Shown one piece after another: positions 1-20,500 of a stretch of DNA of 64,000 bases. The position numbers and the translations under genes are program-made. Location: positions 8,396-72,395 of the forward strand of contig CANQST010000003.1 in assembly GCA_947626595.1 (NCBI GenBank), written 5' to 3'. The first letter of the stretch is position 1, and each line of letters starts with the position of its first letter. Origin of the DNA: an uncultured Bacilli bacterium (lineage in GTDB: Bacteria; Bacillota_I; Bacilli_A; RF39; UBA660). A model generated the notes under the pieces. It worked only from the letters and a program-made list of their open reading frames with translations. It was not told where the DNA came from and did no database searches.

Positions 1-36
1 TTAGCTTTTTTATCTTTATTTATTAGTATCTCAATT

Positions 37-504
37 GTGGACATATTTAATTCTGCTCTGCCTGTTTTTATTGGTGTATTTTTAGATTTTATATTTATTA
101 TTATAGCTATTCATTATCTTAAAAAATCAAATAATTTAAGTGATATTGTTAATAAGGTACTTGATGAGCTAACTAAAGAATTTAATAATGAAGTAAAAAA
201 TATAAGAAAAGAACTTTTAGAAACAAAAGAAGATAATGAGAAAAGTGTAAAACATTATAAAGATGAAGTAAAAAGATTAAGCGATAATACAAAAGTATCT
301 AATAGATGGGAAGATTTTGTGAATTTTAGAAAAAAACATTATAATCAAAAAATCGAGAATTTATTGTTAGAAGTTGGTTTAAAAGAAAAAATTGAAGAAC
401 TAGGAATAAAATATATTAGAATTAATAATAACAATAAAATTAATGATGGAAGTATAGAGGACTATATAATTTATTTCGATAAAATTTTAGAAGAAAGTAC
501 CTAA
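37..504 (+). CDS. hypothetical membrane-anchored coiled-coil protein; reading frame is open back to base 1, so the N-terminus may lie upstream of the window
   Basis: ORF with a hydrophobic N-terminus and a K/E-rich coiled-coil-like middle. No stop codon in frame between bases 1 and 37. Confidence 0.45.
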   Translation: MDIFNSALPVFIGVFLDFIFIIIAIHYLKKSNNLSDIVNKVLDELTKEFNNEVKNIRKELLETKEDNEKSVKHYKDEVKRLSDNTKVSNRWEDFVNFRKKHYNQKIENLLLEVGLKEKIEELGIKYIRINNNNKINDGSIEDYIIYFDKILEEST

Positions 505-518
505 TGAGGTGAAATGAA

Positions 519-1169
519 TTGAATAAGAAAAAATTAAAAGGAGAACGTAAATGGACCTACTATACTAAAAAAATATTAGAAGATATGATAAATACTGATA
601 AAGAATTAAATAAACATAAATATAAAATATATTGTGATACTGATGAAGCAAAAAAAACTTTAAGTGCTGTTGTTTCTTTAAATAAGTATATTAAATGTTC
701 TAATAATGAGATCCATGATATAGATAAATCAATTAACGATTTTACAAATAATAAATTTCATCCAGATATTTTAATTACAGAAGATGTTATTAATGAAGGC
801 ATATCATACTCTATACCTAGATTAGTAATTGAAAATAAATATAATGGTACAAGTTTTACACCTCATGAAATTTTAGCCTATAACTATAAAGCAGATTTAC
901 ATAAAAAATTATATCCAGGTCTTAGATATGGTCTTATTATAGGAAATAGTAGTTATATTAATAATACTACTATAAGATTTGGTAATAACTTTGATTTTAT
1001 TTTATCTTTAAGTGATGAAGTATCTGATAAAGAAAAAGAAAAGTTAATGGATATTGTCAAAAAAAACCTTGATTATGCAACTAAATTGGAAAGTATAATA
1101 GATGATAAGAATAAATCAATATCATGTGTATGCATAGAAAATAATATCGAGTTTGAAGATATAAAATAA
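519..1169 (+). CDS. hypothetical protein with a PD-x(n)-ExK nuclease-like motif (HPDILI...LVIENK); copy 1 of the duplicated cassette gene
   Basis: TTG start preceded by a GAGGTGA SD. Near-identical paralog at 7795-8433. The motif is read directly from the translation. Confidence 0.6.
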   Translation: MNKKKLKGERKWTYYTKKILEDMINTDKELNKHKYKIYCDTDEAKKTLSAVVSLNKYIKCSNNEIHDIDKSINDFTNNKFHPDILITEDVINEGISYSIPRLVIENKYNGTSFTPHEILAYNYKADLHKKLYPGLRYGLIIGNSSYINNTTIRFGNNFDFILSLSDEVSDKEKEKLMDIVKKNLDYATKLESIIDDKNKSISCVCIENNIEFEDIK

Positions 1170-1235
1170 TTTATAGGCATCTATCAAGTGCCTATTTTTT
1201 GTACTTAAGCTATAATAGTTATAGGAAGTGATATT

Positions 1236-1673
1236 ATGCCTGTAATTAAAAAAAATGTAAAAGCAAAAAGTAAAATAGAAATTGATGATAACGAAATTAA
1301 CGTTTATAACCATGAAACAATTAAAAATATTATTAGATATTTAAATGCTTATATGGAGGAAATTAATTTAGATAAAAAAATTTTATATTTTAGTTTTTAT
1401 AATTCAAAAAAATATTTAGTAGAAAATTATAGTTGCTTAAATAAAAAAAATATTGTAATAGTTGATAAGGATTACTTAAATGCTGACGATATAAAACGTT
1501 ATATTATCGAACAAAAACCAAGATATATATTTATTAATTATTATAAATTAACTTCAAATAGAGAAAATTTATTATTAATGAAAGAAAAATTAGGGCATGT
1601 ATTAAATAAGATAGAAGAATATAGTAAAAAATATAATGTAAAATTTATAGTAGCAATAAATAAAGAAGATTAA
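1236..1673 (+). CDS. hypothetical protein, present only in cassette copy 1
   Basis: 145-aa ORF flanked on both sides by the repeated RBS string ggaagtgat. No recognisable motif. Confidence 0.45.
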   Translation: MPVIKKNVKAKSKIEIDDNEINVYNHETIKNIIRYLNAYMEEINLDKKILYFSFYNSKKYLVENYSCLNKKNIVIVDKDYLNADDIKRYIIEQKPRYIFINYYKLTSNRENLLLMKEKLGHVLNKIEEYSKKYNVKFIVAINKED

Positions 1674-1677
1674 GGAA

Positions 1678-2721
1678 GTGATTGGATTGTATGAATATTT
1701 AAATAGTATAGCAAAAGAATACCTTACTAAGGAATTGAGAAGAAATTTTTTTAAGAAATTTGATTCCAAAGATCTATTTAGAAGATGTGAAAAAGAAATG
1801 GATATTCTTTATGATAGAGATTTACTTTTTATTGTTGAACACCTATATAAATTTAAAAAAGAAAATAAAAATGTTAGGTATCATTTTAGAGGTACTATAA
1901 ATAATCTACTACTCTTATATGTATTAGATATAAGTTATGTTAATCCTTTAGAATATAACTTACCTTATGAGTTGTTTAATGATAAAACTATTAATGTTGA
2001 TATAATTAATGAACCTAGTATCCTTTTTATCAATTACTTAAATAAACAAGCAGACAATTTTAAAATAGTTCATGGTAATTTTATAAAAGAAGATATAAGA
2101 GAAGTAAATAAATTCTTAGAAAATCATTATTTATTGTTACCTTGTGGTTATTTAGATAATAGTATGTTTTTAAAGTTTAATGATTTAGATACATTAGAAA
2201 CTATCGATGATTATAGAAACTATAAAGATAAATATATGACAATAAGAATAGATGAAAAAGATATAATAAGATGTGATAATGTATGTCTTGATAATGTATT
2301 TACTAATGATTTTGAAAGAGAAATGTCTAAAATTTTAAAACCTAAAACCATAAATGATTATATAAAAATAAAAAGTATGGCTCATGGTACTGATGTATGG
2401 AAGAATAACCAAGATAAGTTGTTTAAAGAAAAAAAGATAAATTTAGATAATCTAATTACAACACGTGAAGATATATTAGAATACCTATTAAATCACAAAA
2501 TAGATAAAGATGTTGCTTTAGATATTACTATGTTTATTAGTCTAGGGCAAGCACAAAAAGAGCCTATTAAATGGGAACAATACATTAAAATAATGAAAGA
2601 TAACAAGTGTGAAGAAATGTTTATTGATGTTTTCTCTAAAATATTATTTATCTTTGGTAGAGGTCAAGCAGTAAGTGAGTGTTTATATGCTTTAGATAAA
2701 AATAATTATATTGGAGAGTAA
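1678..2721 (+). CDS. miniature DnaE-like protein (homolog of the Pol III alpha palm entry region, lacks PHP and distal domains, catalytic Asp pair not conserved); copy 1
   Basis: HFRGTINNLLLLYVLDISYVNPLEYNLPYELFN aligns to the DnaE [35 protein letters not shown] block. The downstream SILFINYLNKQ...IKEDIREV resembles the RDEVIxYV...AIRDV block of DnaE. The PDxDxDF catalytic position reads VDIINEP. Confidence 0.55.
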   Translation: MIGLYEYLNSIAKEYLTKELRRNFFKKFDSKDLFRRCEKEMDILYDRDLLFIVEHLYKFKKENKNVRYHFRGTINNLLLLYVLDISYVNPLEYNLPYELFNDKTINVDIINEPSILFINYLNKQADNFKIVHGNFIKEDIREVNKFLENHYLLLPCGYLDNSMFLKFNDLDTLETIDDYRNYKDKYMTIRIDEKDIIRCDNVCLDNVFTNDFEREMSKILKPKTINDYIKIKSMAHGTDVWKNNQDKLFKEKKINLDNLITTREDILEYLLNHKIDKDVALDITMFISLGQAQKEPIKWEQYIKIMKDNKCEEMFIDVFSKILFIFGRGQAVSECLYALDKNNYIGE

Positions 2722-2724
2722 AAA

Positions 2725-3393
2725 ATGAATTCAGATACTAACAAACTATTTAAAGCAACTATAACATTTGAAAATGATAATTATATGACTATAGTTTTAT
2801 ATTTAATTTATAATGGTAAAGAAAAATTAAAAAATGTAGTTCCTCAAATAAAGTTTACAACTTGGGGTAATAAATATCTCTTAACTGTTGATATAAAAAA
2901 AATTAAAATTTTAGAAAAATTAAAAAAATTAGATAGCTATGATAAATTATATATAAATGATGTTTTAGAATATGTAAAAACACATCAACAACTATTATTA
3001 GAGTATTGGAACGCTGATATACCAGAGTTTGAAGCAAAACAAATATTTTTTGATGAAACTAATGATCATTTTGGTTGTACTAATTTAAGTAAAAAAAAGT
3101 CGGGTTTACCTATGAATTTAGTTTTATATTGTTCATATCTACTTGATAGAGATAATATATTATTTTTTCAAAATGATTATGGAAAACTTAATTATAATAA
3201 TATGATTATGATGAGTGTTGATAAAGAAAATCCACAAGTATTAGTAGATAGGAAAATAAATATAAAAGAAGAAGATATGATATTTTTAAAAAATTTTATT
3301 AAAAAACATTATAAAACAATAACAGACTATAACAACGATGAACTATATGACGCTGAAATATTTGATTTAATTGATGAAAGTTTAAATAATTAA
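2725..3393 (+). CDS. hypothetical protein
   Basis: 222-aa ORF immediately after the DnaE-like gene. No recognisable motif. Confidence 0.45.
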   Translation: MNSDTNKLFKATITFENDNYMTIVLYLIYNGKEKLKNVVPQIKFTTWGNKYLLTVDIKKIKILEKLKKLDSYDKLYINDVLEYVKTHQQLLLEYWNADIPEFEAKQIFFDETNDHFGCTNLSKKKSGLPMNLVLYCSYLLDRDNILFFQNDYGKLNYNNMIMMSVDKENPQVLVDRKINIKEEDMIFLKNFIKKHYKTITDYNNDELYDAEIFDLIDESLNN

Positions 3394-3416
3394 AAATATT
3401 AGTGGAGATGATGTAA

Positions 3417-3908
3417 ATGTTTTTAAAAAAAATACAACAAAAAAGATATAATAAAATTTTATTAAATGAATTAGAAAAAAAGATAGATATTACTACAGAT
3501 AATCTTATTGAACATCTATTAATGTGTTTATTACTTAAAGATTCAACTAATAATTTAAATCACTATAAAGATGAAGTATATTCAAGTTTTAATAAGACAT
3601 GTCTACTTATTGGTAATAATAAATTTCCTACTAAAAAAATTTTATATAATATTACATTAGATCAATTTAGTGATGTTTTACCTGCTTGGATAAATGGTTA
3701 TATAGAGAATATAAATTATAAAGAAAATGTTAATATAAATAATTATGATAGTTCTTTATTAACTAATTATATAATTGAATACTATAAATGGTTAATTTCT
3801 ATTTTAGCCAAAAGATATTTTGTTAAGCATGAAGAAGTAAATGATAAAATTAATATATTAATTAATAATTATGATAAAGAAACAACTATGAAAAATAATT
3901 ATGTATAA
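3417..3908 (+). CDS. hypothetical protein
   Basis: 163-aa ORF preceded by a GGAGATGA SD. Confidence 0.4.
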   Translation: MFLKKIQQKRYNKILLNELEKKIDITTDNLIEHLLMCLLLKDSTNNLNHYKDEVYSSFNKTCLLIGNNKFPTKKILYNITLDQFSDVLPAWINGYIENINYKENVNINNYDSSLLTNYIIEYYKWLISILAKRYFVKHEEVNDKINILINNYDKETTMKNNYV

Positions 3909-4377
3909 AGTAGGTGATATAAAATTGAAAATATATTCTGTTTTAGGACACTCAAAAGAATCAACTAATTTTAATTATGATTTAGTGTTAAATGAATTGA
4001 ATAAAGATTATAATATAAATGGGATAACTAGAATTGGTTTTACTGATAATGGTTATGAAGTTTTTATAATAACTGATGATGATTTATTAAGTGATGTACC
4101 ACACTTTCATTATCGTAAAAAACAGAAAAGTAAACCTAATGAATTTCATACTTGTATAAAAATAACTGATGTAGGATATTACCATCATATAGGTAATGAA
4201 GATAAATTAAATAAAAAACAAATAGATGATTTAATAAAATTTTTAAATTCTAAACCATTAAATACTAAACATTTTAAAAGTAATTGGGAGTTATTATTAT
4301 TTAGTTGGAATAGTCAAAATAACAATATAATAGTAAATCATAATTTAGAGATACCTAATTATAATAAATTAAAATAA
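3901..4377 (+). CDS. hypothetical protein
   Basis: 158-aa ORF overlapping the previous stop codon. Confidence 0.4.
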   Translation: MYKVGDIKLKIYSVLGHSKESTNFNYDLVLNELNKDYNINGITRIGFTDNGYEVFIITDDDLLSDVPHFHYRKKQKSKPNEFHTCIKITDVGYYHHIGNEDKLNKKQIDDLIKFLNSKPLNTKHFKSNWELLLFSWNSQNNNIIVNHNLEIPNYNKLK

Positions 4378-4639
4378 ATATTAAAAAGGATACAGGGAGA
4401 AAAGACAGTGATAGGGATTTTTTTAATGAAACTTCAGTAATTTTTCCCTGTGCTTTTTTTGTTGTTTTTAAACATTTTAATAGCTTTTTAGGGAAAAATG
4501 GAAGAATTTTTGTTTCTTAAGAATTTAAAAAACACAAAATAAAATATATTTATATATAAAATATTATATAAAAAGATATAAAAAAAAATTTAATAACTTT
4601 TTCCACTTATCCCTAAATACTATATAATCATTGAAAAAC

Positions 4640-4712
4640 AACGAAAAATAGTGGGGAAAAAATTAAAAAAATCTTCTCTAAAAGATCCCTTATTTAGAAG
4701 CTTCCCCACTCA
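4640..4712 (-). terminator. putative intrinsic terminator downstream of the recombinase gene
   Basis: Inverted repeat agtgggga/tccccact. On the minus strand the downstream arm is followed by a T-rich tract. Confidence 0.35.
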
Positions 4713-4723
4713 TATACTTATAT

Positions 4724-5332
4724 TTAACTATTTTTAACTAAATTATAAAAAGTATTAGGTTTTAAATTTAGTAGTTTCATAGCTTCACGAGCCGTGATTT
4801 TCTTATTCTTCCATTTATCGACTACTTCATCAAAATTATCAGGTTTATTTATTTTAGGTCTTCCAAAAGGTCTACCTGTTTTAGTTTTGCCTGTTTTTAA
4901 AGCTAAATCGATACCCTCACGCTGACGTGTTTTAATATAAGTCCTTTCTTGTTCAGCAACATAACTTAATATCTGTAATATTAAATCATTAATAAATGTT
5001 CCTAATAAATCTTTCTTTTGTCTAGTATCAAGTAGAGGCATATCTATTACTACAATATCAGCTTTTATATTTTTAGTGATATCTTTCCACTCATTAACTA
5101 TCATTTCATAATTTCTACCTAAACGATCAATACTTTTAATAAATAGAGTATCATTTTCTCTAAGTATATTTTTTAATAATTTATATTGTTCTCTATCGAA
5201 ATCTTTACCGCTTTTCTTATCGATATAAATATCTCTTTCTAATATACCAATATTTTTAAATGCTTCTATTTGTCGTGCTTCATTTTGTGATGTAGAAGAA
5301 ACACGACCATAACCATATTCTCTTTTTTCCAT
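4724..5332 (-). CDS. small serine recombinase (resolvase/invertase family) with a C-terminal HTH
   Basis: N-terminal YGYGRVSSTSQ catalytic-serine motif. Length 202 aa, typical of the Tn3 resolvase/Hin family. C-terminal HTH-like segment. Confidence 0.85.
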   Translation of the reverse strand: MEKREYGYGRVSSTSQNEARQIEAFKNIGILERDIYIDKKSGKDFDREQYKLLKNILRENDTLFIKSIDRLGRNYEMIVNEWKDITKNIKADIVVIDMPLLDTRQKKDLLGTFINDLILQILSYVAEQERTYIKTRQREGIDLALKTGKTKTGRPFGRPKINKPDNFDEVVDKWKNKKITAREAMKLLNLKPNTFYNLVKNS

Positions 5333-5384
5333 AGTTATATTCTCCTTTCACGTTGATTATATAATTGATTATGAAAGTCATCAC

Positions 5385-5520
5385 TATTATATTTGAAAAA
5401 GTATAAAAGGTTTTCAAATATTTAAAAATTAATAACTTGACTTTTCCAAACACAAAAAACACCTAGATTATCCATAAATCTAAGTGTTTGAAAATGTGTA
5501 CTTTTTCAAATACACATTTT
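5385..5520. promoter_or_regulatory. inverted-repeat cluster upstream of the recombinase gene; candidate res/crossover site or operator
   Basis: atttgaaaa-N11-ttttcaaat, aaaatgtgta-N10-tacacatttt and ttttccaaacac...gtgtttgaaaa, all within 140 bp directly 5' of the recombinase start. Confidence 0.3.
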
Positions 5521-5525
5521 TGTTA

Positions 5526-6464
5526 TTATGCCTTACATGGTCCCCATGATGTATTAGTTTCAGTATCAATACACTTAATATCGTTACTACCACATAAAAC
5601 ACATTTAAATTGGCCACTTTTTATTTCTTTAATATTTTCTTTACTTAATGTTTTTACTCCAATATAACCATGGCAATTATTACAACAAATTTTATATTTA
5701 AAACCCTCTTCAATTGCGTCTGGATCCGAACATGTTGTAACTCTATATATTGTATTATCATTAATTAGTTTTGCATACCTTTTCCATACTTTATCATGTC
5801 CTTTAGTATTAGTAAAAGCATGTAAAATTTCATGTATAAATATACTTATAAGGACCTTTTCTGAATATTTTAATATAAGATTACTTAATTCTATAATAGC
5901 ACTATTGTTGTTATATCTTATACATTGTCCTGCAGCATATGTTAGGTTTTCATTTAATCTGTACTGAATATCTTTAGTTAAGTATTTTTTTATTTCGTCT
6001 TCTCCAATAACCTCTTTTATTACATTAAGGGCTTCGAAATACCCTAATTTTATTTTCATGCTTTGACCTTTTGTTTTTTGTACTCTTTTATTAATAATAA
6101 GAGTAGGATTTTTCTTTCTAAGTAATATTACTTGACAAGGTGCAATTCCTCTTTCTATAATTTCTAGACCAGTTTTTTTATCCACCCAACAATATTTTGG
6201 AGTTAAGTAGAAAAAGTCTTTTTTTCCCTCTATAGTTATTTCTATTTTTAATGGGATTTGATAGTTATACACTACCTCCATTATTTCTTCTAATGTTTGT
6301 CTACTATTAAAAACTAGTTGTATATTTTCGACTGTTTCACTATAGAATTTGATATCTATTTTTTTTAAACTTCCTGTAATGTCCTCAAATAGTTTATTAG
6401 ATTTTGTTAATAACCTTATTTGTCCTATTTTTAAATCCATATTTTTTTTCCTCCTTTCGAACAA
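5526..6464 (-). CDS. SprT-like zinc metalloprotease with a C-terminal Cys-rich zinc-ribbon
   Basis: HEILHAFTNTKGHDKVW (HExxH...GH..W) followed by CCNNCHGY...CVLCGS...C. Confidence 0.5.
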   Translation of the reverse strand: MFERRKKNMDLKIGQIRLLTKSNKLFEDITGSLKKIDIKFYSETVENIQLVFNSRQTLEEIMEVVYNYQIPLKIEITIEGKKDFFYLTPKYCWVDKKTGLEIIERGIAPCQVILLRKKNPTLIINKRVQKTKGQSMKIKLGYFEALNVIKEVIGEDEIKKYLTKDIQYRLNENLTYAAGQCIRYNNNSAIIELSNLILKYSEKVLISIFIHEILHAFTNTKGHDKVWKRYAKLINDNTIYRVTTCSDPDAIEEGFKYKICCNNCHGYIGVKTLSKENIKEIKSGQFKCVLCGSNDIKCIDTETNTSWGPCKA

Positions 6465-6650
6465 ATAGTTATTGTTTTTACCTCATTTCTACAACAATTT
6501 TTTTCTGTTGTAATATTTAGTTACGAAAAAAAACTAAAAAAAAATAAAAAATTTAAAATTTTTTAATAAAAATTGATAAAAAATATATATTCTAACATGA
6601 AAAAAGCTGATAAAAATATTATCAGCTAGAGACTTTCAATAATTTTTTAA

Positions 6651-7034
6651 TTATAAAAAGTCATATTTATTTCTTTCATTTATACTAATTATTATAAATT
6701 TATTGGTCTTAGTTATTTTCATTAAAGAATTAAAACCATCATCAAAAGATGTAGCATAAAAGCTTTCTTTTGGAGAATTTTCATAGATTAATTCTATGTT
6801 GTAAATGCCATAAAAATCTTTCATATCATTTACTAGATCCTCATAAATTTCTGACCTATTTAAAACTAAAGTAAAATCTTTAAATGTAGAGTAGCTAGTA
6901 CAGATGTTATTTTCAATAATATAGTCTTTACTAACTCCACTTATAGTAATTTTATGAATTTCTTTTCCTTGATACTCATCTATTGGTATTAAAAATTCAT
7001 CGTTAAATCTTATTTCTCTTAATTTTTTATTCAT
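6651..7034 (-). CDS. hypothetical protein
   Basis: 127-aa ORF. No recognisable motif. Confidence 0.45.
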   Translation of the reverse strand: MNKKLREIRFNDEFLIPIDEYQGKEIHKITISGVSKDYIIENNICTSYSTFKDFTLVLNRSEIYEDLVNDMKDFYGIYNIELIYENSPKESFYATSFDDGFNSLMKITKTNKFIIISINERNKYDFL

Positions 7035-7368
7035 TAATTAACTCCTTTGTTTTCTGTAAAATTAATGTTATAAAATTATTTGCTTTTTAGATTAGTTAAT
7101 TTTTAATGTTCACATAATATCCTCCGTTTTGTCCTAGTACTTTAATATATAAAAAAATTTAAAAAAATTTTTTAAATTATTATTTATTATTAACTTGGAG
7201 TGGTATAATGATAAAGAAACCACTATTAAAAACATAACAGTTTGTTTTTAGATTAGTCAGCTCCACCATAGTGGTTACCAAACTCGGATTTTTTAAATTA
7301 TTTAATAAGTTCGAGTTTTAATATTTAATAATATATGATAAATGTTTTTAGTAATTAAGGGGAAAAAT

Positions 7369-7768
7369 ATGAAAAAAGAGTTAATTAAAACAAAAATAAA
7401 TGTTAATAACAATAAATAGGTATTTTAAGAATTGGCGATACCGACTATATATCATTAACTGATTTAGCAAAATATTCTAATCCTGAAAATGTGATAATAC
7501 ATTGGATGAGTAATAAAGGAACATTTGATTATATAGGATTATGGGAGAAATTAAAAATAACGAAGTTGGATATTCGTCATTTAATTTAAGTCCTAAAAGA
7601 TGGATTGATAGGACAAATGCCATAGGAATATATTCTAAAGGCGGAAAATATAGCACAGGGACATTTGCTCATCCTGATATAGCATTTGAATTTGCAAGTT
7701 GGTTAAGTCCTACTTTTAAATTATATTTGATTAAAGAATTTGAAAGATTAAAAAGAAATGAAATTTAA
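7369..7768 (+). pseudogene. KilA-N domain protein gene disrupted by two frameshifts in A-runs
   Basis: Three consecutive frames read MKKELIKTKINVNNNK / IGILRIGDTDYISLTDLAKYSNPENVIIHWMSNKGTFDYIGLWEKLK / NNEVGYSSFNLSPKRWIDRTNAIGIYSKGGKYSTGTFAHPDIAFEFASWLSPTFKLYLIKEFERLK. Joined, they reconstitute a canonical KilA-N domain. The shifts sit at aataaatagg (7411-7420) and ttaaaaataac (about 7550). Confidence 0.6.
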
Positions 7769-7782
7769 AAGACAAAAAATGA

Positions 7783-8433
7783 ATGGAGGTTAAAGTGAAT
7801 AAAAAAGAATTAAATGGAGAACGTAAATGGACACAGTATATTAAGAAATTATTAGAAGATATGATAAGTAATGATAAAAAATTAAATAAACATAATTATA
7901 AAATATATTGTGATACTGATAAAGCAAAAAAAACTTTAAGTGCTGTTATTTCTTTAAATAAGTATATTAAATATTCTAATAATATAGATAAATCAATTAA
8001 CGATTTTACAAATAATAAATTTCACCCAGATATTTTAATCATAGAAGATGTTGTTAATGAAGGCATATCATACTCTATACCTAGACTAGTAATTGAAAGT
8101 AAATATAATGGTACAAGTTTTACACCTCATGAAATTTTAGCCTATAACTATAAAGCAGATTTGCATAAAAAATTATATCCAGGTCTTAGATATGGTCTTA
8201 TTATAGGAAATAGTAGTTATATTAATAATACTACTATAAGATTTGGTAATAACTTTGATTTTATTTTATCTCTAAGTGATGAAGTATCTGATAAAGAAAA
8301 AGAAAAGCTAATGGATATTGTCAAAAAGAACCTTGATTATGCAACCAAATTGGAAAGTATAATAGATGATAAGAATAAAAAAATATCATGTATATGTATA
8401 GAAAATAATATTATGTTCAAAGATAAGAAATAA
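7783..8433 (+). CDS. paralog (copy 2) of the 519-1169 protein; the motif here reads LVIESK (E to S). True start is probably GTG at 7795 after the GGAGGT SD
   Basis: About 93-95% nucleotide identity to copy 1. It has a 12-nt deletion (EIHD) relative to copy 1. Confidence 0.6.
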   Translation: MEVKVNKKELNGERKWTQYIKKLLEDMISNDKKLNKHNYKIYCDTDKAKKTLSAVISLNKYIKYSNNIDKSINDFTNNKFHPDILIIEDVVNEGISYSIPRLVIESKYNGTSFTPHEILAYNYKADLHKKLYPGLRYGLIIGNSSYINNTTIRFGNNFDFILSLSDEVSDKEKEKLMDIVKKNLDYATKLESIIDDKNKKISCICIENNIMFKDKK

Positions 8434-8472
8434 TTTTGGGCACCTGTGTTTTTACTATTTAAGTTATAGGAA

Positions 8473-9513
8473 GTGATTAAATTGTATGAATATTTAAATA
8501 ATGTGGCAAAAGAATACCTTACTAAAGAATTGAGAAGAAACTTTTTTAAAAAGTTCGATTTAAAGGATCTATTTAGAAGATGTGAAAAAGAAATGGATAT
8601 TCTTTATGAGAGAGATTTACTTTTTATTGTTGAACACCTATATAAATTTAAAAAAGAAAATAAAAATGTCAAGTATCATTTTAGAGGTACTATAAATAAT
8701 CTACTGCTCTTATATGTGTTAGATATAAGTTATGTTAATCCTTTAGAATATAACTTACCTTATGAGTTATTTAATGATAAAGCTATTAATGTTGATATAA
8801 TTAATGAACCTAGTATTCTTTTTATCAATTATTTAAATAAACAAGCAGACAATTTTAAAGTAGTTCATGGTAATTTTATAAAAGAAGATATAAGAGAAGT
8901 AAATAAATTTTTAGAAAACCATTATTTATTATTACCTTGTGGTTATTTAGATAATAGTATGTTATTAAAGTTTGATGATTTAGATACATTAGAAACTATT
9001 GATGATTATAGAAACTATAAAGATAAATATATGACAATAAAAATAGATGAAAAAGATATAATAAGATGTGATAATGTATGTCTTGATAATGTATTTACTA
9101 ATGATTTTGAAAGAGAAATGTCTAAAATTTTAAAACCTAAAACCATAAATGATTATATAAAAATAAAAAGTATGGCTCATGGTACTGATGTATGGAAAAA
9201 TAACCAAGATAAGTTGTTTAAAGAAAAAAAGATAAATTTAGATAATCTAATTGCAACACGTGAAGATATATTAGAATACCTATTAAATCATAAAATTGAA
9301 AAGAATATAGCATTAGAAATCACAATGTTTATTAGTTTAGGAAAAATGAAAAAAGAACCTAATAAATGGAATGAGTATGTTGAAGTGATGAAAATATATA
9401 ATTGTGAAGATTTGTTTATAGAAATATTTTCAAAAATATTATTTATTTCCAGTAAAGGTCAAGCAGTAAGTGAATGTTTATATGTTTTAGATAATGATAA
9501 TTATTATATATAA
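8473..9513 (+). CDS. miniature DnaE-like protein, copy 2
   Basis: 346 aa. About 90% identical to 1678-2721 over most of its length and divergent at the C-terminus. Same RGTINNLLLLYVLDISYVNPLEYNLPYELF block. Confidence 0.55.
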   Translation: MIKLYEYLNNVAKEYLTKELRRNFFKKFDLKDLFRRCEKEMDILYERDLLFIVEHLYKFKKENKNVKYHFRGTINNLLLLYVLDISYVNPLEYNLPYELFNDKAINVDIINEPSILFINYLNKQADNFKVVHGNFIKEDIREVNKFLENHYLLLPCGYLDNSMLLKFDDLDTLETIDDYRNYKDKYMTIKIDEKDIIRCDNVCLDNVFTNDFEREMSKILKPKTINDYIKIKSMAHGTDVWKNNQDKLFKEKKINLDNLIATREDILEYLLNHKIEKNIALEITMFISLGKMKKEPNKWNEYVEVMKIYNCEDLFIEIFSKILFISSKGQAVSECLYVLDNDNYYI

Positions 9514-9723
9514 ATATTAGAAAGGCTAAGAATAAAGTTTAAAAAATGAAAAAGATGGTTTTTAAAATACGTTAAAATAGAGCGTACTGATATGAAATTC
9601 GGAAAACGTACTTGATAAAAATGCATTTTTATGTTACTATGAATTTGTCAAGGAAACTTGCATAAAATAAAAAAGGGAAATACTTAACTTTTGCACGCTG
9701 AGTACTTACCCCTATATAGGTTT

Positions 9724-9759
9724 GTACTTAATCTATTGTAGATTAAGTACTATTTTTTA
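9724..9759 (+). terminator. rho-independent terminator
   Basis: Perfect 10-bp stem gtacttaatc/gattaagtac with a 7-nt loop, followed by tattttttat. Confidence 0.55.
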
Positions 9760-9783
9760 TATTAAAATTTTTCTTTAGAATTA

Positions 9784-9792
9784 TGGTATAAT
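9784..9792 (+). promoter_or_regulatory. extended -10 promoter element (TGgTATAAT) for the GNAT gene
   Basis: tggtataat lies about 25 nt upstream of the ATG at 9817. Confidence 0.4.
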
Positions 9793-9816
9793 TTCTAGTA
9801 GAAAGCAGGGGGAAAA

Positions 9817-10374
9817 ATGTTAAAACTAATTCATGCTAATGATATGAACTTTAATAGTGTAAAAAATTATTATGACAGCTTTACCGATAAATGGAAAGAT
9901 TTAAACTGTTATGCCATTTCTCATGCCCAGTATGGACCTAATGAGTATTTTGATTTCGTTAATACTTATGAAAATAATTTGTTCTATTTAGTAGACGAAG
10001 ATAAAGAAGACTATATCATTGGTTTTGGCACGATTGAAGATGCCAAAATTCTTGATTATCACAAGGACTATCTAAATGCAGGAAATATTGGCTACGGAAT
10101 AAGACCTAATGAAAGAAAAAAAGGTTATGGTACCATGCTTTTAAAACTTCTTTTATTAGAATGTGAAAAAATGGGTATGTATGAAGTATGCATATCTTGC
10201 TTAGAAGAAAATATTGGTTCTAAAAAAATAATTATCAATAATAATGGCCTTTTAGAAAAAGAATTCTTTGACGACGACAGTGGCCAATATGCCCTTAAGT
10301 TTTGGATAAAGCTCCATCCTAAAATCATAAATAGAACCAAAAGATTAGTGAAAAGACTTAGAGAAGATTATTAA
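9817..10374 (+). CDS. GNAT family N-acetyltransferase
   Basis: GYGIRPNERKKGYGTMLL acetyl-CoA binding motif (Q/RxxGxG/A-like). Confidence 0.8.
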   Translation: MLKLIHANDMNFNSVKNYYDSFTDKWKDLNCYAISHAQYGPNEYFDFVNTYENNLFYLVDEDKEDYIIGFGTIEDAKILDYHKDYLNAGNIGYGIRPNERKKGYGTMLLKLLLLECEKMGMYEVCISCLEENIGSKKIIINNNGLLEKEFFDDDSGQYALKFWIKLHPKIINRTKRLVKRLREDY

Positions 10375-10391
10375 TATGGGGGGGATATAAA

Positions 10392-10955
10392 ATGAATATA
10401 ACTAAAACTAAAAATGAGTATGATACTTTTAATATAAAGTTAGAAGACGAAAACAAAGTTCTATCAATAAATCAAGTCGGACAAGACTTAAATATTGCCT
10501 GCAAATACAATGATTACCGTAAATTATCAGACATTTCATTTTCTATTTCCATAGAAAATGAAGAGTTATACTTCCCATTTAATAAACTTTATAGTAATAT
10601 AGTAGATGGTAATATTCTTGGTGAAGACATATCTTTAGATAGAGTAAAACAAACAAGTAACCTCGAAAAAAACACTAACTTATATCAAAAAATCGTCCAA
10701 AATGAAGTAATTACCATACTTTCTGATACTACTCCCATAGATTATCCTAATATTTTAAGAATTATCAAAGAGGAAGATAAAATAATTTTAAAGTTTGAAA
10801 AAGTTGAAGCTCATTTTAGAAAAATTCCTTTCTACATACCTATAGATATACGTACATCAGGCTCAAGACTTTATGACTTTTCCATTCCCTTTAAAACCCT
10901 ATTTAAAGAACTACAAAATCTTAAAGATAAAGAAAAATACTTAGTAAAGAAGTGA
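10392..10955 (+). CDS. hypothetical protein; its RBS consists of a G7 homopolymer
   Basis: 187-aa ORF. The G7 tract at 10378-10384 sits immediately upstream of the ATG. Confidence 0.5.
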   Translation: MNITKTKNEYDTFNIKLEDENKVLSINQVGQDLNIACKYNDYRKLSDISFSISIENEELYFPFNKLYSNIVDGNILGEDISLDRVKQTSNLEKNTNLYQKIVQNEVITILSDTTPIDYPNILRIIKEEDKIILKFEKVEAHFRKIPFYIPIDIRTSGSRLYDFSIPFKTLFKELQNLKDKEKYLVKK

Positions 10956-11365
10956 TATCAATGAAAAACCCTATTATAAGAATTTCCTTAATTATCCTTT
11001 GCCTTGCTCTCCTTTTAATCATATGTAACTTATCAATTAGATTTTTCAAATATATAAATATAAGAGGAACATATGAACAAATAGAAGGCAGCTTCATTGA
11101 AGAAGAATTAAAATTAAATTTCTTTAGCTGGACTATAGGCAAAAAAGAAGATTTAGAATGTGACCTATGGAACTGTACTGGCTATGAAAAAGGTAATATG
11201 TACTATATTAAAGATGGTTATTTATACCTTAGATATAATAAACATGGCGTAAGAGAAGCTGTTCAAATAAATATCAAAAAAGAAAATAAAATCACATATC
11301 TTATTATTAAAGAAAAAAATGCTGACAATAAATATACTACTAGTAAACTAAGAAAAATCGATTAA
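10952..11365 (+). CDS. hypothetical small membrane-anchored protein
   Basis: 137-aa ORF overlapping the previous stop codon. N-terminal TM helix. Confidence 0.45.
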   Translation: MISMKNPIIRISLIILCLALLLIICNLSIRFFKYINIRGTYEQIEGSFIEEELKLNFFSWTIGKKEDLECDLWNCTGYEKGNMYYIKDGYLYLRYNKHGVREAVQINIKKENKITYLIIKEKNADNKYTTSKLRKID

Positions 11366-11380
11366 TAATTAATGTAATTT

Positions 11381-11440
11381 AAACACTTTATCACAACTAT
11401 AAAAACTTGCTACAATTTTGTGAAAAAGTGTTTATTTTTA
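11381..11440 (+). terminator. long-stem terminator / palindromic operator upstream of the giant gene
   Basis: aaacactttatcacaa ... tttgtgaaaaagtgttt form 16-bp inverted arms with a 20-nt spacer, followed by a T-rich tract. An extended -10 (tggtataat) follows. Confidence 0.45.
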
Positions 11441-11512: not shown

Positions 11513-14500
11513 ATGTTGAAATTAAGTAAAAAATATCTATTAATTCTTTTAGCTGGAGTAGTTTTCCTATTTAGTGGGAAAGTATCTGCTAAAGAAATAA
11601 TTTTACAAACCAATTCTAAAGAAGTGAACGTTGAAGATACTGTCACTTTAAATGTTTCTGTTGATAATGAAGATCAATCTTTATATGCCTTAAAAGCTAA
11701 ATTAAGTTATGATAAAGATGTTTTTGAAGTGCTAGAAGAAAAAGATTTTTCTGAAGAAATAGAAGACATTGTTTATAATGAACAAAATAATGAGTTTGTT
11801 ATTTTAAATAAAAAAGGTTCCAATGACAACTTATTTACAATTAATTTAAAAGTAAAGAAAGATGCTTTAAATGGTAAAACCACTTTAACATTAAGCAATT
11901 TAGAAGTATCAAATGGAACTGATAGCACTAAATATGATAAAAAAAGTGTTACTTTAAATGTTAAAGGTGGTAAAGATGTTACTGCTACAACTACTACCAA
12001 AAATAATAAAACTAAAAATGCTAAAAAGACTTTAAATGTTAAAAAGACACTATTAATTTCTGCTATAGCGCTCCTTATTTTAATGGCTTTAATTGCCTTT
12101 ATTAATTCTGATTACTTTGAAAAACTTAATCTAATAAAAAAAGAAAATAAAAATAAAGTATCTATTGTTATTGCGCTTATTATCATTTTAGCGGACATCA
12201 TTCTAATATCTTTATTAGGTTTTAATGCTGTTAATAAAGGTGATGTAGATAAAGATGGTAAAAAAGATTATAAAGATATACGTAAGATAAGTGAATATTT
12301 ACTTAATGTAACTAATGGTGGTAAAACATCTTCTAGTCTTAAAAATACTTTAAATTATTATAATGCTGACTACAATGGTGATGGTAAAGTTACTTTAGAC
12401 GATGTTGCCGCTCTAACTCAAGATGTAAATAATAAAACAGTTTATGAAGTAGAAGTAGCTAAAAGTTCTATAGAAAATTATTATCCTAGTAAAAACGGTA
12501 ACGTTGAAGTAAATCTATCATTTATTGTTAACCCTAGTGATAATATTTATGTTGAAAGTGTTTTTGCTAACGGCAAATACTATAAAGTAACTAAAGATAA
12601 TGATAATTATTATGCAAGTATAAAAGTTACTGATAAAGCTGGTATTAATGATATCGTTATTTCTAAAGTTAAACTAAGTAATGGTAAAGAAATAAATATT
12701 AAGCCATATACTTTAAAAGTTGATGTCTTAAAAGAAGCTCCTAGTATTAAAAACTTTGATTTTACTAATGAAGGAAAAGTATCTTTTGAACTTGTTGATA
12801 AAGATAATTCATTAGAAAAAGCTACTTTAGTAGTATTAAATAATGACGAAATAGTTACTACTAAAAAGGTAAAGAAAGATTTAAATACTTTCGAATTATC
12901 TTTAGAAAAAGGTATTAATTATACTATAAAAATACTTACTGATTATGACTTAGATAGTTCTAAAGATAATGATAAAAATGCCTTTACTGATAAATTAATT
13001 TATATGAAGCAAGTACAGCTATATGATGTTGGACTAAAACTAAATAGCGTAAGTAACAATTATCCACTTAAAGGAGAAAAAGTAACTGTTTATTTTACTG
13101 CTAGTAGTAATGTTCAAGAAGTACTTATTGATAATAAATACTATACTGTTACTAAGAATAATGATTTATATAGTTTTACTATAGATGCTCCAAATGAAGC
13201 TGGATTATCTAAATATCAAGTGACAGGTGTTATTCTAGATAGTGGTGAGTTTAGAACTAAGATGGACTTTAGTTTTGATGTCTTAAAAGATAAGCCAACT
13301 GTTAAAAATCTTATGTTTGACTACAATAGTCATACAATTACTTTCGATGTAGTTGATAAAGATAAATCTCTAAGTACTTTAAAATTACAAGTTATAAATA
13401 ATGAAACTAAAGAAGAAGCATTTACTAAAGACTTAGATACTGAAAAAAGTACTTTCTCATATAAAGCTGATTTAACTTTAGGCGCAACTTATTCCATTAA
13501 AATTACTGGAAATTATGACTTAGATAGTAAAAAAGGAAATGATAATTTCTATCAAGATTATTCTCTTTATAACCATGTTATTACTATTGATAAAGTTTCT
13601 ATTAAGAGTGTTACTGATTTAGATAATTTATTCCCTAAACAAAATGAAAATATTGAAGTAGCTCTTGATATTGATATCTATCCTACTAAAACAAAAGTTA
13701 CTAAAGTAGTTATTGATGGTAAAGAAACAGATGTTGTATATAAAGATGGTCATTATTATATAACTTTTAATGAAAAAACTTCTGGCATAAAGAAACATAC
13801 TATAAGTTCTATTATTCTTGAAAATAATACTGAAGTACCTACTAACTTTAATATTAAATTAGATGTTTTAAAGGAAAAACCAGCTGTTAAAAACTTTGCT
13901 TATTCAACTGCTAGTAAGACTATAAGTTTTACTTTAGAAGATAAAGATAAATCTATTAAGAATGCTAAGATAGTTGTTACTTCTAAAGAAAATGGTAAAA
14001 AAGTTTTAGAAGAAAAACTAGATTTAGCTAAGTCTTTATTTGAGCTTAAAATAGATTTAACTGAAAGTGCTAAATATGATGTTAATATTATAGCTAACTA
14101 TGATTTAGATAGTGATAGTACTAATAATAAAAATGAAATAGAAGAGAATTTATATACTTATCAATTAACTGTTTATGGAGTTAAATTAACTAGCGTTCAA
14201 GATACTTATTACGCTAAAAAGAATGAAGAAATAGAATTGAAGTTTAAAGCTGAAATTACTCCTGAAGATAATGGTAGTATTATAAGTGCCGTTACTATTG
14301 ATGGTAAAGTTTATGATGTAATTAGAAATATTGAAGGAACTTACAGCGTCTTTATAAAAGCAAAAGATACATCAGGAAATAAGAAATATACTATTACTAG
14401 CGCTACTGTTGGCGAAACTGAATATGCAACTAAACTAGGTTTTAATGTATATGTTTTAAAAGATAAACCTACTATAGAAGATTTATATATAGACGAAAGT

Positions 14501-17500
14501 AAAAGTGTACCAGTAATTACTTTTAACTTAAAAGATAATGACAGTGCTTTAGATAAAGGTTATGCTTATATTAAAGATGGATCAGGTAATGAAGTAGAAA
14601 AATTTACTCTTAAGAAAGGTAAGAATTCTATTGATTTAAAAGATATTGCCACTAACTTAAAAGATGGTGCGACTTACTACTTAGATGTTAAAGTTAATTA
14701 TGACTTAGACGATACTAAGAATAATAAGTATGAAACAGAAGAGTACCTTATAAATAATCATATCGTTAAAATATATAAAGTAAAATTATCTCTAGGAGAA
14801 AATAATCCTTACTACGTTAATAAAGACGAAGAAGTAAATATCAAAATAAATGCTACTGGTAAAGACTTAGATACTGTTAGAGTTAAGACATTTATTATTG
14901 ATAATAAAGAATATGAAGCTATTTATAATAATGGTAGTTACTATGTAAAAGTTAAAACTCCTACTACTTCTGGAATAAAGACATATAACATTACTAAAGT
15001 AGTTTTAACTAATGATATTGAAGTATCTTCAAGTTTAGAAATTAAACTAGATGTTCTAAAAGATACTCCTTATATAAATAAATTTAATCTTAATGAAGAA
15101 AATGGTTTAATTACCTTTGAACTTGTTGATAAAGATAAAGCTTTCCAAAATGGTGATGTATCTATTTCTAATGAAACAGGAAATTTAATTACTAAAGAAG
15201 TAAAAGAAAAGACTACAATTACCTACAAGTTCTTAGAAGATATGAATTATAATATTAAAATTACTGGTAATTATAATCTTGATAGTGATACTACTAATGA
15301 GGAAAATTTATATACTGATGTTGAAATGTTTAGTCATGACTTTCTTATTGGAGGTAATTATCAATTTACTTTAAATGATTTATCTATAACAGACTCTTTA
15401 ACTAAGAGTGAAAAACCTGTTGTATCATTCACAAGTTCTAATATGAAGAATGCTACTATTAAAGAAGTTGTTATTAATGGTAAAAAATATAATGTCTCTA
15501 AAGTAGATGGTAATTATTATGAAGTAATTCTTAATGATGCCCAAATGACATCAGGTAAACATAAAGTTGAATTAGAAAGTGTTACTCTAGATACTATGAA
15601 GACTTTTAAGAATAATTTAGACTTTTCTACTAATAGCTTAACTTATAGTGTTTTAAAAGATGCTCCAAGTATTAAGAATATTAATCTTACTAGTAATAAT
15701 ACTGATAAGACTATAACTGCTACTTTCAATCTAGAAGATAAAGATACTACTTTAACTAGATTAAAAGCCCTACTAGTTGACTCTGCTGATAAGATAATTG
15801 CTGAACAAGAATTAACTCCAGAGATGGTTTACTTATTTGATACTTCTAGTGTTACTTTATCTTACTTAGATAATGCTGATGGACATGTTGATGGTTATTA
15901 CAAAGTTAGATTTTTAGCGGACTACGATTTAGGAGAAGAAAAATATCTTTATAGTGATAAAAATGTTGGTGAAAAAGATATTTTAGTTCAAAAAGATTTA
16001 ATTTATATTAAAGATATTTATATTGCCGATAGTAGAGGTAATAAAATAGATAATTTATATCCAAGTAAAAAACAAAAGAATTATCAAGTTGTAGTAGATG
16101 TATATGTTGATAATAGTATTAATGATTATGCTAGAAGTAAATATGGTAATAGAGCTTATCAAAAAGTCTCTGTTGTAACTATTAATGGTGTTGATTATAG
16201 TGCCGATAAACTAAATGATTATAGGTCTAAAATTACTTTAGATGTCCCTGATACCTCAGGTATTCTTAACTTAACTGTTAATAGAGTTCAACTTGAATAT
16301 GCTGATTACAATGTTAGCTTTAGACAATTCTACTCTGTACCTGAAAAATCTATTAAGATAGATGTTTTAAAAGATACTCCTACTATTAAAAATTTAAGTA
16401 TTAAAGAAGACTATGCTAAAGCAAGCGCAACATTCGATTTTGATGTTGTCTTAGACGAAAAAGCTAAAGAAAAAGACGAAAGTTTCAAAAATGGTAGTAT
16501 TGCTCTAGGTGAACTTCGTCAAAATATAAATAGAGGTCATAATTCTATTACCTTTAATAATATTAAGAAAGACGAAAACTTAGATTTAGTCTTTGAAGGA
16601 AGCTATGATCTTGATACCGATACTTTAGAAACAACAGATCAAAATGAATATGAAAACAAAGAAATCTATAGAGTAAATTATGGTCTATATGATAAAGAAA
16701 CATATGAAGATATCAAAATAACAGATGGTCTATCTCTAAGTAAAAATAATAATAACTATTTTGAAAAGAATGAAGATATCAAATTAAACTTTAATGTAAC
16801 TGGCATCAAAGAAGAATTAGGCTTAGATGTTGAAAAAGTTATTATTAAAGATAAAGAATATCCTATAACTAAAAAAGATAAGTATGAAGTTACTTACGAT
16901 AGTTATAATACTTTTGGTCAAAAAGAAATTACTATTACTGGTGTTGTTCTAAGTAATGGTAAGAAAGTTGACTTAAAGAAACCTTATACTTTTAAACCAG
17001 AAATACTAAAAGATAATATCAGTTTAGATAATTATAAAGTAGAAGTTCAAAATAATAAGATTAAAATTACTTCTAACTTAAAAGATAGTGATAATTCTTT
17101 AATTAAAGCTAATATTAAAATAACTACTGAAAATGGTAAAGAACTAGTAAATAAACCATATGAAGAAGAAATTACTATTGATAAAGTTAAAGATGTTTTA
17201 AGATATTATGTTGAAGTATATGCAAGTTATGATAGAGATATTGATATTACTGAAGGAAGTTCTAACTATTATGAGACTAAATTACTAGAAGAAATAATTT
17301 CCTTTGAAGAAAATGTTATTGAACTTAAAGATATTACTGACATAAATTTATATAAAGCTGAAAAAGATAACTCTATAAATCTTTTAGATACTGTTAACGT
17401 TAATGATTTGGAGAAAAATTTAGATAACTACTTTATTGAAATTAATATGGAAAATGCTCCAAGTGTTCATGCTAATATTAAGAAAATAACTACTAAAGAT

Positions 17501-20500
17501 AATGAATTAATGTTAGTATTAGACTTTGATAATGTATCTAAAGAAAATGTTAAAGGAAAAGAGTTTAGTATCTTCTTTGGTAATATAGAAAATAATAAAG
17601 CTACTAATGAAACACATCCTGATGTTGCATTTAAGACATTATTAAAACGTCTTGAAAGTAATGAGGACATAGTCTTAAAACAAAACTATGATGCTAGTTT
17701 AATATCTGAAGACACTAAGTATTATGTTGATAATTATAGTGGAAAACTAGATGGAAATGGCTTTACTATTAAAAACCTAGAAAAACCATTATTTAATAAA
17801 TTAACTAATGCTAATATTAAGAATTTAATTTTAGAAAATGTTGTTCTAGATAGTAATGGTAGAGGTGCTTTAAGTAATGATGCATCTTCCACAACTGTGG
17901 AAAATGTTATAGTAAATCGTGTTACTAAGAAAAGTGCAAGTAATGGTCAAAATGGTGGTTTAATTGGAAATGTTAATACTCGTAGTACTATCAATTCTTG
18001 TGCCGTAAAAAATATTGACTTTAATATTGGCAATGCTCAACAAAATGGTGGTTTAGTTGGATATGCTGAAAACTCTACTATCAGTAATAGTTACGCTATT
18101 GGTAAAGTAAATGGTGGCTGGAACTTTAATGCTGGTTTTGTAGGTAATACTGCTAATACAACATTTACTAATAACTATTCTAAAGTAAGCGTTACTGGTT
18201 ATACTATCTGTGACTTTGCTTGTAGTTATCTAGGTCAATCAAGTTACCACAATAATATATCTTTAGGAGGTACTAATCGAGGTTTTGTAAATAAGTATAG
18301 TTCTATTTCTAATAACTACTACTTAGTTACTGATGGAAGTATAAGTACTAATAAAGACATTACTAATATCACAGCTGAACAAGTTAATACTAATCTATTT
18401 AAACAAGCTAAGTTTGATAGTAGTATATGGCGTTTAGATAACGTTACTTATGAAAATACTCCATTATTACAAACTGAAAAAATAACTTCTATGGATGAAA
18501 GTATTAATGGTTATGATAGTACTAAGACAATTCTTTATAATAACTTAATGAAATTAATGCCATATTACAGTAATGAAAAAATAATTACTATGGCTAAAAA
18601 CATCAAAGATAATTACTTAAATACTAAAGAAATTATGCATATCTTACCAGTTGATAAAAATGGTAATATTGTAACATACTTAACAAATGATAATGTTAAG
18701 AGAATTAGTAAAATAAAAGTAGTCTATAAAACTAAAGAAAAACAAGAATTTAATGTAACATATGATAATACATATGACTTTGTCGCAACTTATCGTATAG
18801 TTGATTTAAAAATTGATTATAACTACAAAAATTACATAATTGATAGTAATTCTCAAGTTGTAAATAACTTAACTAATTACTTGAAAAAATTAAATTATAC
18901 TGATAATTTAGATATCTTAACTTCTACTGGAGATAGTAGAATATATAGAGATTTCTATAATGAGACAACTGTTAATGAATTAAAAGAGTTTGTTCTATCT
19001 TATCTATCTAATAGTAATTATAATAATATAACTAATAATGATATTATAACTACTCATATTGAAAAAGAAGTAAAAGAAGATAAGAAAATAGAAAAGATAC
19101 TATATATGTATAACTACTTTAGACGTTTCTATGACTTAGATATTGATGGTATTAAGTTATATCAATTTATGCTATTTAATATGGATGGTTTTGATAGTAG
19201 TTTAACTCCAAAAAAGATTGCTAACTTATTCTTAAGTGATGGAACTAACTTCAATACTAATGAAACAAATACTAGATATCAAAAAATCTTTAGCAACTAT
19301 ACTAATCTAAATACTATATCTAAATTCTTAGAGTATATGGTTACTGAATTTAGTGATTTAGATATGGATAAATGGACTGCTTCACAATTTAAAGGATATC
19401 TAGCTGAAGTACCAGTAGATGGACATCCTGAAGTATTATATACTTTATGGGATCACTTTAGTAATGAAGATGCTACATACCATAACCCTTATCAAATATA
19501 TAACTATGTATTACCAATCTTAACTTTACCAAAAGATGCTGCCTACATTATATCTAGTCCTGTTCAATTTATAATAGGTGCCCAAAGGACTTATATAGTT
19601 GATCCAAGCAATGAAGAGGAACAAGCATTATTAAGAAGAAAAGTTAAGAGTTATACTGATAGAATGAGTAATTATTACAATACAGCTTATGGTTTCTTAC
19701 AAGATGCTAAAGTATTTAATGATATTCATACTTACCAATTAGATAAGCGTTATACTAAAGGCGCTAATGGAGAAACTATTTTCCATAACCCATATGTAAC
19801 AGAAGAACCATTCCACAAGAACTTAAATGAAGTAATGAACCAATGGGCATACAATGATTATAATGCCGCAACCGCTAATGGAACTCAGATAATTTGGCGT
19901 GTTGAAGGATTAATGGATGGTAACTTAATCCCTGAACTTGGTAATGTTCAAGAATATACATATCAGACTTGGTCACATGAGTCAGCACATAACGTTGATG
20001 CTAGATTATTCTTACGTAATAATGGTAGAAGATATGATGCTGGTGGAGAAGATTATGCTGATGGTAACTTAACTCAAAGTTTTGGTCAAAATGACATTGT
20101 TATGAACTTATCAGTTAATTATGATGCCGGTAGTAGAGTTGGTGCTAACCTTACATATGATAGAATTGCTTCACCTAGCAAAATTCATGATTTCTATCAA
20201 AAAGTTTTTGATACTATATATATAATGGATTATATAGAAGGAAAAGCTTTCTTAGAATTAAATGATAAAGAAAAATCAGGTGTAGCTGTTCAAGTTATGT
20301 ATCCAAATGAGAATTTAGAAGGAGAAGACAAAACCCATCTTAAATACAAATACACAGTATATCAGCATATAGACGAAGATAAGTATAAAGCTATGAAACT
20401 AAATTCTATTGAGGATCTATACAAAGAAAAATTAGTAATATTCCCTAATGTTTATTACTCAACCTATACTGATAATAGATACGGTGGCGAAGGTATAAAT

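Follow-up and report, generated by a model that had tools for sequence, protein, structure and literature searches.

A deletion-broken KilA-N gene remnant between an island backbone and a duplicated segment in an uncultured Bacilli genome

We analysed a 64,000-nt stretch of DNA from an uncultured Bacilli bacterium (the window) with regard to a KilA-N domain gene that is distributed over three reading frames at 7369-7768. The window is chromosomal, i.e., rpsL, rpsG, fusA and tuf are found at 21.5-25.8 kb, and FemAB and a MurD-like Mur ligase are encoded beyond them. Its first ~11 kb, taken together with the L001 extension, hold genes of a mobile element, namely a D5_N/DUF5906 primase, an SSB, an HTH regulator, a small serine recombinase and a SprT-like protein. 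A 3178-aa ORF (11513-21049) separates the island genes from rpsL; it has weak Dockerin_1 and GLUG motif matches and a Peptidase_M26_C in the precomputed annotation. The features in and around the KilA-N remnant are listed in Table 1.

Table 1. Features of the KilA-N remnant and its borders (window coordinates).
Feature	Position	Strand	Description
70-nt element	7199..7268	+	ends in GCTCCACCA; directly left of the cassette remnant; end of the island backbone
5' non-coding leader of the KilA-N cassette	7270..7368	+	roughly 88-91% conserved with six relatives, flanks otherwise unrelated
Inverted repeat in the leader	7280-7288 / 7310-7318		AAACTCGGA / TTCGAGTTT
Putative extended -10 box, one A lost (A4 to A3)	7336-7343	+	TGATAAAT vs TGATAAAAT in relatives; column 71 of alignment A4
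Coding fragment 1, frame 1	7369..7419	+	MKKELIKTKINVNNNK then TAG; aligns to residues 1-16 of intact relatives
Lesion 1, 1-nt deletion, frame shift	7414..7416	+	A4 to A3, AATAAAATAGG to AATAAATAGG (alignment A4)
Coding fragment 2, frame 3	7420..7546	+	GILRIGDTDYISLTDLAKYSNPENVIIHWMSNKGTFDYIGLWE; tblastn q18-65, 89.6% identity
9-nt in-frame deletion	~7487/7488	+	AATCCTGCT (residues PAN) lost between direct repeats CCTGAAAAT and CCTGCTAAT
Lesion 2, 40-nt deletion junction	7546..7547	+	TGGGA/GAAATT; ACAATTAAATAATGAAAATTTTAATTTCACGGAATTCCGT in relatives; ~13 codons gone plus frame shift
Coding fragment 3, frame 2	7547..7768	+	EIKNNEVGYSS...GTFAHPDIAFEFASWLSPTFKLYLIKEFERLKRNEI then stop; tblastn q77-157, 88.9% identity
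Degraded tail and 3' truncation point	7763..7792	+	identity drops sharply from 7763; homology ends between 7762 and 7786
Copy B, duplicated two-gene segment	7793..9504	+	212/216-aa protein and 346-aa PolC/DnaE-like fragment protein

Reading 7369-7768 in forward frames 1, 3 and 2 gives MKKELIKTKINVNNNK followed by a stop, IGILRIGDTDYISLTDLAKYSNPENVIIHWMSNKGTFDYIGLWEKL.., and ..GEIKNNEVGYSS...GTFAHPDIAFEFASWLSPTFKLYLIKEFERLKRNEI followed by a stop, respectively; the full frame 2 translation is GEIKNNEVGYSSFNLSPKRWIDRTNAIGIYSKGGKYSTGTFAHPDIAFEFASWLSPTFKLYLIKEFERLKRNEI, then TAA (forward-frame reading of 7369-7772). No single frame runs uninterrupted through the domain, given the stop at 7417-7419 and the frame change between 7546 and 7547. 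Gene callers report fragment 3 as a 75-aa ORF that starts at ATG 7541 (7541-7768). KilA-N (PF04383) is known from the N-terminus of phage P1 KilA and is a DNA-binding domain of phage and large-DNA-virus proteins. The joined 133-aa translation, i.e., the domain encoded across three frames, matches this Pfam model with 71 bits (E=8.8e-20, profile positions 3-106/107, cutoff 23.8), so that the KilA-N observation is real and far beyond chance. It also matches the PADLOC model PDC-S22 (E=1.4e-48, profile positions 4-143, profile length 281), for which the 75-aa ORF alone reaches E=8.5e-33. The closest database protein is P0001 (84% identical), and the joined domain lacks 16 residues that are present in its closest relatives. 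The original prediction of a complete KilA-N domain spelled by three frames is thus right about the domain (E=8.8e-20) and wrong about its completeness, since a 9-nt in-frame deletion has removed part of it and the C-terminal ~130-140 residues of the protein are absent.

Related gut Bacilli carry the cassette in intact form; its ~290-aa product combines an N-terminal KilA-N domain with a conserved C-terminal half. A full-length relative (L008) matches PADLOC PDC-S22 end to end (4-275/281, E=2.9e-114) as well as PHROG 2657 ('transcriptional regulator'), and Pfam KilA-N on its N-terminal half only; a PDB sequence search and NCBIfam gave no match for the full-length relative. The ~290-aa family corresponds to PDC-S22, a putative phage-defence candidate, and we infer a role of the intact family in phage defence or regulation. 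PDC-S22 is itself a single-gene candidate only, whose mentions in the papers found include a genome survey. Its model is matched over the full length by L008, whereas the window copy is a frameshifted N-terminal half.

To compare lengths, a 290-aa reference made by repairing the L004 gene was used as tblastn query against all fetched loci and the window. Among the species-representative loci, 76/80 show a single uninterrupted HSP in one frame of ~260-290 residues; the other four are either cut by contig ends (two) or frameshifted (L045, L060). The window yields only the matches q18-65 and q77-157, and the C-terminal half (q158-290) is absent from the whole 64 kb. That is, the remnant lacks the C-terminal ~130-140 residues (~46%) of the normal ~290-aa protein, and only one of the two halves of PDC-S22 is represented (profile positions 4-143).

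Frameshifts are also seen elsewhere in the family. P0001 is itself frameshifted, with A7 for the in-frame A8 at L004 10556-10563 (also in L005 and L006), which leaves ORFs of 197 aa and 102 aa; in P0002, P0003 and P0005 the C-terminus is shifted at this same QK(K/R) A-run; and the KilA-N genes of L045 (two copies) and L060 are split as well. We considered A-run slippage as a conserved family feature and rejected it in view of the 76/80 loci with a single-frame HSP, such that the run is a mutational hotspot at most.

The lesions were located in a DNA alignment (A4) of the window with six close relatives (L004, L007-L011). These come from a genome-collection scan and belong to 'uncultured Bacilli' MAGs with isolate names beginning 'Lapin'. 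At lesion 1, five of the six relatives read AATAAAATAGGT vs AATAAATAGGT in the window, and the site is the same in L001-L003 and L097. The 40 nt missing at lesion 2 are likewise carried by five of the six. The exception, L007, has its own in-frame 42-nt deletion at this spot between the imperfect repeats CAATTAAATAATGAA / GAAATTAAAAATAATGAA, and the stretch between these repeats is a deletion hotspot. The nearby A5 run ATTAAAAATAA has the same length in the window as in the intact relatives. Since this run is unchanged and 40 nt are gone just upstream of it, the second frameshift is a deletion and not a homopolymer indel. Of the two shifts that had been placed in A-runs, the first (a single-A loss at 7414-7416) therefore stands, while the second, assigned to ttaaaaataac, is in fact the 40-nt deletion at 7546/7547. 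An apparent frameshift at an A run can hence be a larger deletion adjoining that run. In addition, a TAA is found at 7766-7768 where the relatives carry TAT (Tyr). The internal loss amounts to 49 nucleotides in total and the 3' loss to ~400 nt, so single-A corrections at the two sites, as once proposed, do not restore an intact gene.

At the 3' end, the tail is identical to the relatives at 15/24 positions (count from alignment A4) and also resembles the preceding 25 nt. Altogether, 7763-7792 partly resembles the KilA-N gene, the sequence upstream of copy A and the preceding 25 nt (for which a local tandem duplication was tried); the precise breakpoint (7762-7786) is ambiguous, as is the origin of the TAA. 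The break of the KilA-N gene coincides with the left edge of copy B (7793). The respective duplication pairs 517-1179 with 7793-8442 and 1666-2709 with 8461-9504, each at ~92%. The 346-aa protein has Pfam and NCBIfam matches to DNA_pol3_alpha and PolC.

With regard to the two copies, we note that copy A (window 517-2709) has an extra 145-aa gene between the genes of the 216-aa and the ~346-aa protein, and that the latter protein holds PolC/DnaE palm- and finger-like fragments. At window position 708 (L001 position 3168) the window has G and L001 has T, which turns GAA into TAA; the copy-A 216-aa gene is accordingly split into calls of 63 aa and 90 aa in L001, and the window copy is open.

To the left, the remnant retains the leader of the cassette, which includes a ribosome-binding site AAGGGG (within 7270-7368) and an octamer, TGATAAAT, that is likely part of the promoter as an extended -10 box, going by its motif. 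The left edge of the cassette (~7270-7276) was set independently against L004, L007, L008, L010 and L011. Next to it, the homology of the window with a related island (L088/L093, 73% nt), which spans the SprT-like gene, a 127-aa gene and the intergenic 70-nt element, stops exactly at 7268. Past this point, no KilA-N gene is present in L088/L093. The 127-aa neighbour gene has a single diverged relative (P0122, 60% identical), again in the related island. Because the related island is devoid of the remnant and the homology is lost at 7268, the remnant is junction DNA between the end of the island backbone (7268) and the duplicated segment B (7793). The suggestion of a decaying phage or island remnant holds to this extent, i.e., with respect to the position between 7268 and 7793, and the gene lies outside the conserved backbone.

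A megablast of 1-11400 gave no DNA match in phage genomes, and the two genes flanking the remnant have no relatives in IMG/VR. An orthologous locus with an intact KilA-N gene was sought as well and rejected, as the island proteins have no relatives near the 80 KilA-N loci except for two weak GNAT matches.

The 70-nt element is 86% identical to L004 6779-6848. It carries TGGTATAAT (an extended -10-like motif), ends in GCTCCACCA, and is found at the boundary of an island or a cassette in three contexts (window 7199-7268, L004 6779-6848, and L088 ~7754-7830 on the reverse strand); a partial second copy of its core, TTTTTAGATTAGT, is found at window 7084-7096. Rfam gave no match, neither with gathering scores on the whole window nor with E<=1 on 6900-7900, and ARAGORN reported no tRNA or tmRNA in the window. 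We also considered the element as a displaced tmRNA 3' end, for which only 9-12 nt (TCAGCTCCACCA) match and 160-178 of 1000 shuffles do equally well, such that this is a weak lead only.

Taken together, homology is combined with disrupting lesions (1-nt, 9-nt and 40-nt deletions, a stop, and ~400 nt of 3' loss) that are also present in contigs from four other samples, in agreement with the pseudogene alternative of the original prediction. The remnant is an ordinary pseudogene of an already known family. Very probably, the locus is a dead relic of a single-gene KilA-N cassette that was broken by deletions and lost its back half. In this genome, the ~1.0-kb cassette has kept its left edge, its leader and the first ~150 codons, and has lost its 3' half at a rearrangement junction with the duplicated island segment. 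What is left bears the A4 to A3 deletion, the 9-nt deletion between direct repeats and the 40-nt deletion flanked by imperfect repeats; one nt is also missing from the probable -10 box, and a stop codon is found close to the end. The homology, each of the lesions, the truncation and their recurrence across assemblies are shown directly; the order of these events and the loss of expression are what we infer. The maximal product would be a 16-residue peptide plus, possibly, a poorly initiated 75-residue half-domain; most likely, the remnant does nothing.

To assess the age of the inactivation, we compared substitutions based on Nei-Gojobori counts. The pN/pS of the window vs its relatives is 0.06-0.15, no different from the 0.02-0.24 among the intact genes themselves. 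Of the substitutions specific to the window, 7 are synonymous and 4 non-synonymous, which departs from neutral expectation (binomial P=0.0015). Given this purifying pattern, the inactivation is recent: the copy was under purifying selection for most of its separate history and was then inactivated by deletions.

A low pN/pS together with a kept leader and ribosome-binding site is equally expected of a fragment that is still used, either as a mini-protein from the 75-aa ORF or with programmed frameshifting or a phase-variable A tract linking its frames. The 75-aa ORF indeed has an ATG start and keeps the most conserved KilA-N block. We nevertheless consider such use improbable. With regard to the mini-protein, the ribosome-binding site of the internal ATG is poor (AGGA just 2 nt upstream), half a KilA-N domain is unlikely to fold, and the low pN/pS is accounted for by recent inactivation. 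Joining the frames would need two compensating +1 events plus read-through of an absent 3' half. Furthermore, a conserved shift site or slippery motif as expected for programmed frameshifting or transcriptional slippage is missing, i.e., five of the six close relatives are single-frame and the sixth (L004) is shifted only at a site other than those of the window. A phase-variable switch calls for a tract of at least ~7-8 nt with length polymorphism; the A3 falls far short of this and does not vary among five assemblies.

A still less probable and speculative reading rests on analogy to the best-studied KilA-N defence protein, BstA, an abortive-infection protein of Gram-negative prophages (PMC8585504). 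The BstA self-immunity element comprises 29 bp upstream of the gene plus its first 34 bp, and acts as DNA (PMC8585504). By analogy, leader and first codons of the remnant might form an aba-like immunity decoy that shields the adjacent replicating island from KilA-N/PDC-S22-type defence proteins. The window keeps exactly this part of the cassette, and does so beside an island with genes for a D5-type primase and an SSB. BstA also resembles the cassette in being single-gene defence cargo of mobile elements (PMC8585504). The hosts differ, in that those of BstA are Gram-negative while the cassette family, whose function is putative, resides in Firmicutes. PADLOC contains a BstA model, and the full-length relative retrieved PDC-S22 alone from PADLOC at E<=0.001, so that the family is not detectably BstA. 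Moreover, no aba-like element is known for the PDC-S22-type family, the leader is conserved no better than the coding part and has a 1-nt deletion of its own, and the related island is wholly devoid of the remnant. If the decoy reading were true, the remnant would provide protection from KilA-N defence proteins that circulate in its gut community.

Homologues are found in Streptococcus satellite phages (e.g., Javan279 JavanS279_0002) and in Staphylococcus phage EW (ORF014), with 48-54% amino acid identity over 91-97% of the 290-aa relative. The Javan279 homologue is accessory cargo between integrase and repressor. These copies are intact and reside in recognisable satellites or phages, whereas the window copy is broken and sits in an island without a DNA match in the phage collection.

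Besides, the location of the intact cassettes shows a recurrent pattern. The shared cassette comprises ~1016 nt, i.e., a leader of ~105 nt, an 870-nt gene and ~37 nt of 3' sequence (L004 9896-10907, L007, L008, L010, L011), and is 91-95% identical across different MAG species whose flanks are otherwise unrelated. The left edge of the cassette directly follows a tRNA ...CCA or, in L004 and L007, a short tRNA-end-like remnant TCGCACCAG. In 10/67 scanned loci (L008, L009, L010, L011, L016, L018, L019, L049, L054 and L063; gene start 10001, 4030 or 8031), the intact KilA-N/PDC-S22 gene is located 52-233 nt downstream of a tRNA or tmRNA gene on the same strand, which involves six tRNA species and one tmRNA. 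The chance expectation is <1%, given ~50 t(m)RNA genes in a genome of 1-2 Mb (P<1e-10). The next genes in L011 and L018 are housekeeping-like and no integrase is found there. In many Firmicutes, the ~1-kb cassette apparently forms a discrete unit that inserts directly 3' of tRNA/tmRNA genes and has no linked integrase. Compared to the aba-like decoy, this reading is the weaker novelty and the more likely one. In L004, the surroundings (807-2534 and 5706-9871) are densely packed with accessory genes and lie downstream of smpB and tmRNA, with a diversity-generating retroelement (bAvd and RVT_1), a PhdYeFM/YoeB toxin-antitoxin pair and an IS605-type TnpB, and a Schlafen AlbA_2/HATPase_c_4 protein is encoded directly before the KilA-N gene.

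Finally, we evaluated whether the lesions are reproduced in other assemblies. SPAdes contigs from ERZ27249684, ERZ27249389 and ERZ27249395 encode exactly the same 75-aa ORF product and equal the window base for base over 7372-7900. Over their respective 17.8, 15.0 and 13.5 kb, they differ from the window by 19, 10 and 11 mismatches with zero gaps, and a contig of ERZ27249386 is 100% identical over 4258-7555, where it covers both frameshift lesions. All mismatches between the window and the three contigs fall within paralogous segments or 2896-3022; this clustering suggests gene conversion or cross-talk between paralogues in assembly. The additional assemblies belong to a single ENA accession series and are near-clonal, with 0 SNPs beyond the paralogous segments, i.e., they show reproducibility and exclude random errors, while they are not evolutionarily independent and give no measure of age. 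Since the four other assemblies have the same sequence without an indel over up to 17.8 kb, random indel error is excluded. An intact gene in which both shifts are homopolymer indels introduced by sequencing or assembly is the least probable reading of all: site 1 does lie within a short A run and the frames rejoin neatly once bases are added, but the sequence recurs in these assemblies, site 2 is a 40-nt deletion beside an A5 run of normal length, and single-base repair still leaves 3+13 internal residues and the C-terminal ~46% missing. Furthermore, the SPAdes-style contig names suggest short-read data, in which A3 to A5 runs are not error-prone. A homopolymer assembly error is thus effectively excluded.

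This result also bears on the remaining window, for which quality control is the main value of the remnant. The concern that the assembly carries homopolymer indel errors is not borne out, i.e., no gap is found in the first 17.8 kb when compared to the other assemblies, and single-base lesions elsewhere in this range are not to be dismissed as such errors, with the caveat that the SNPs between assemblies are all located in paralogous segments. As to the dead relic itself, it provides a further example of the deletion-driven decay of accessory, probably defence-related, cargo at the junction of a mobile island.
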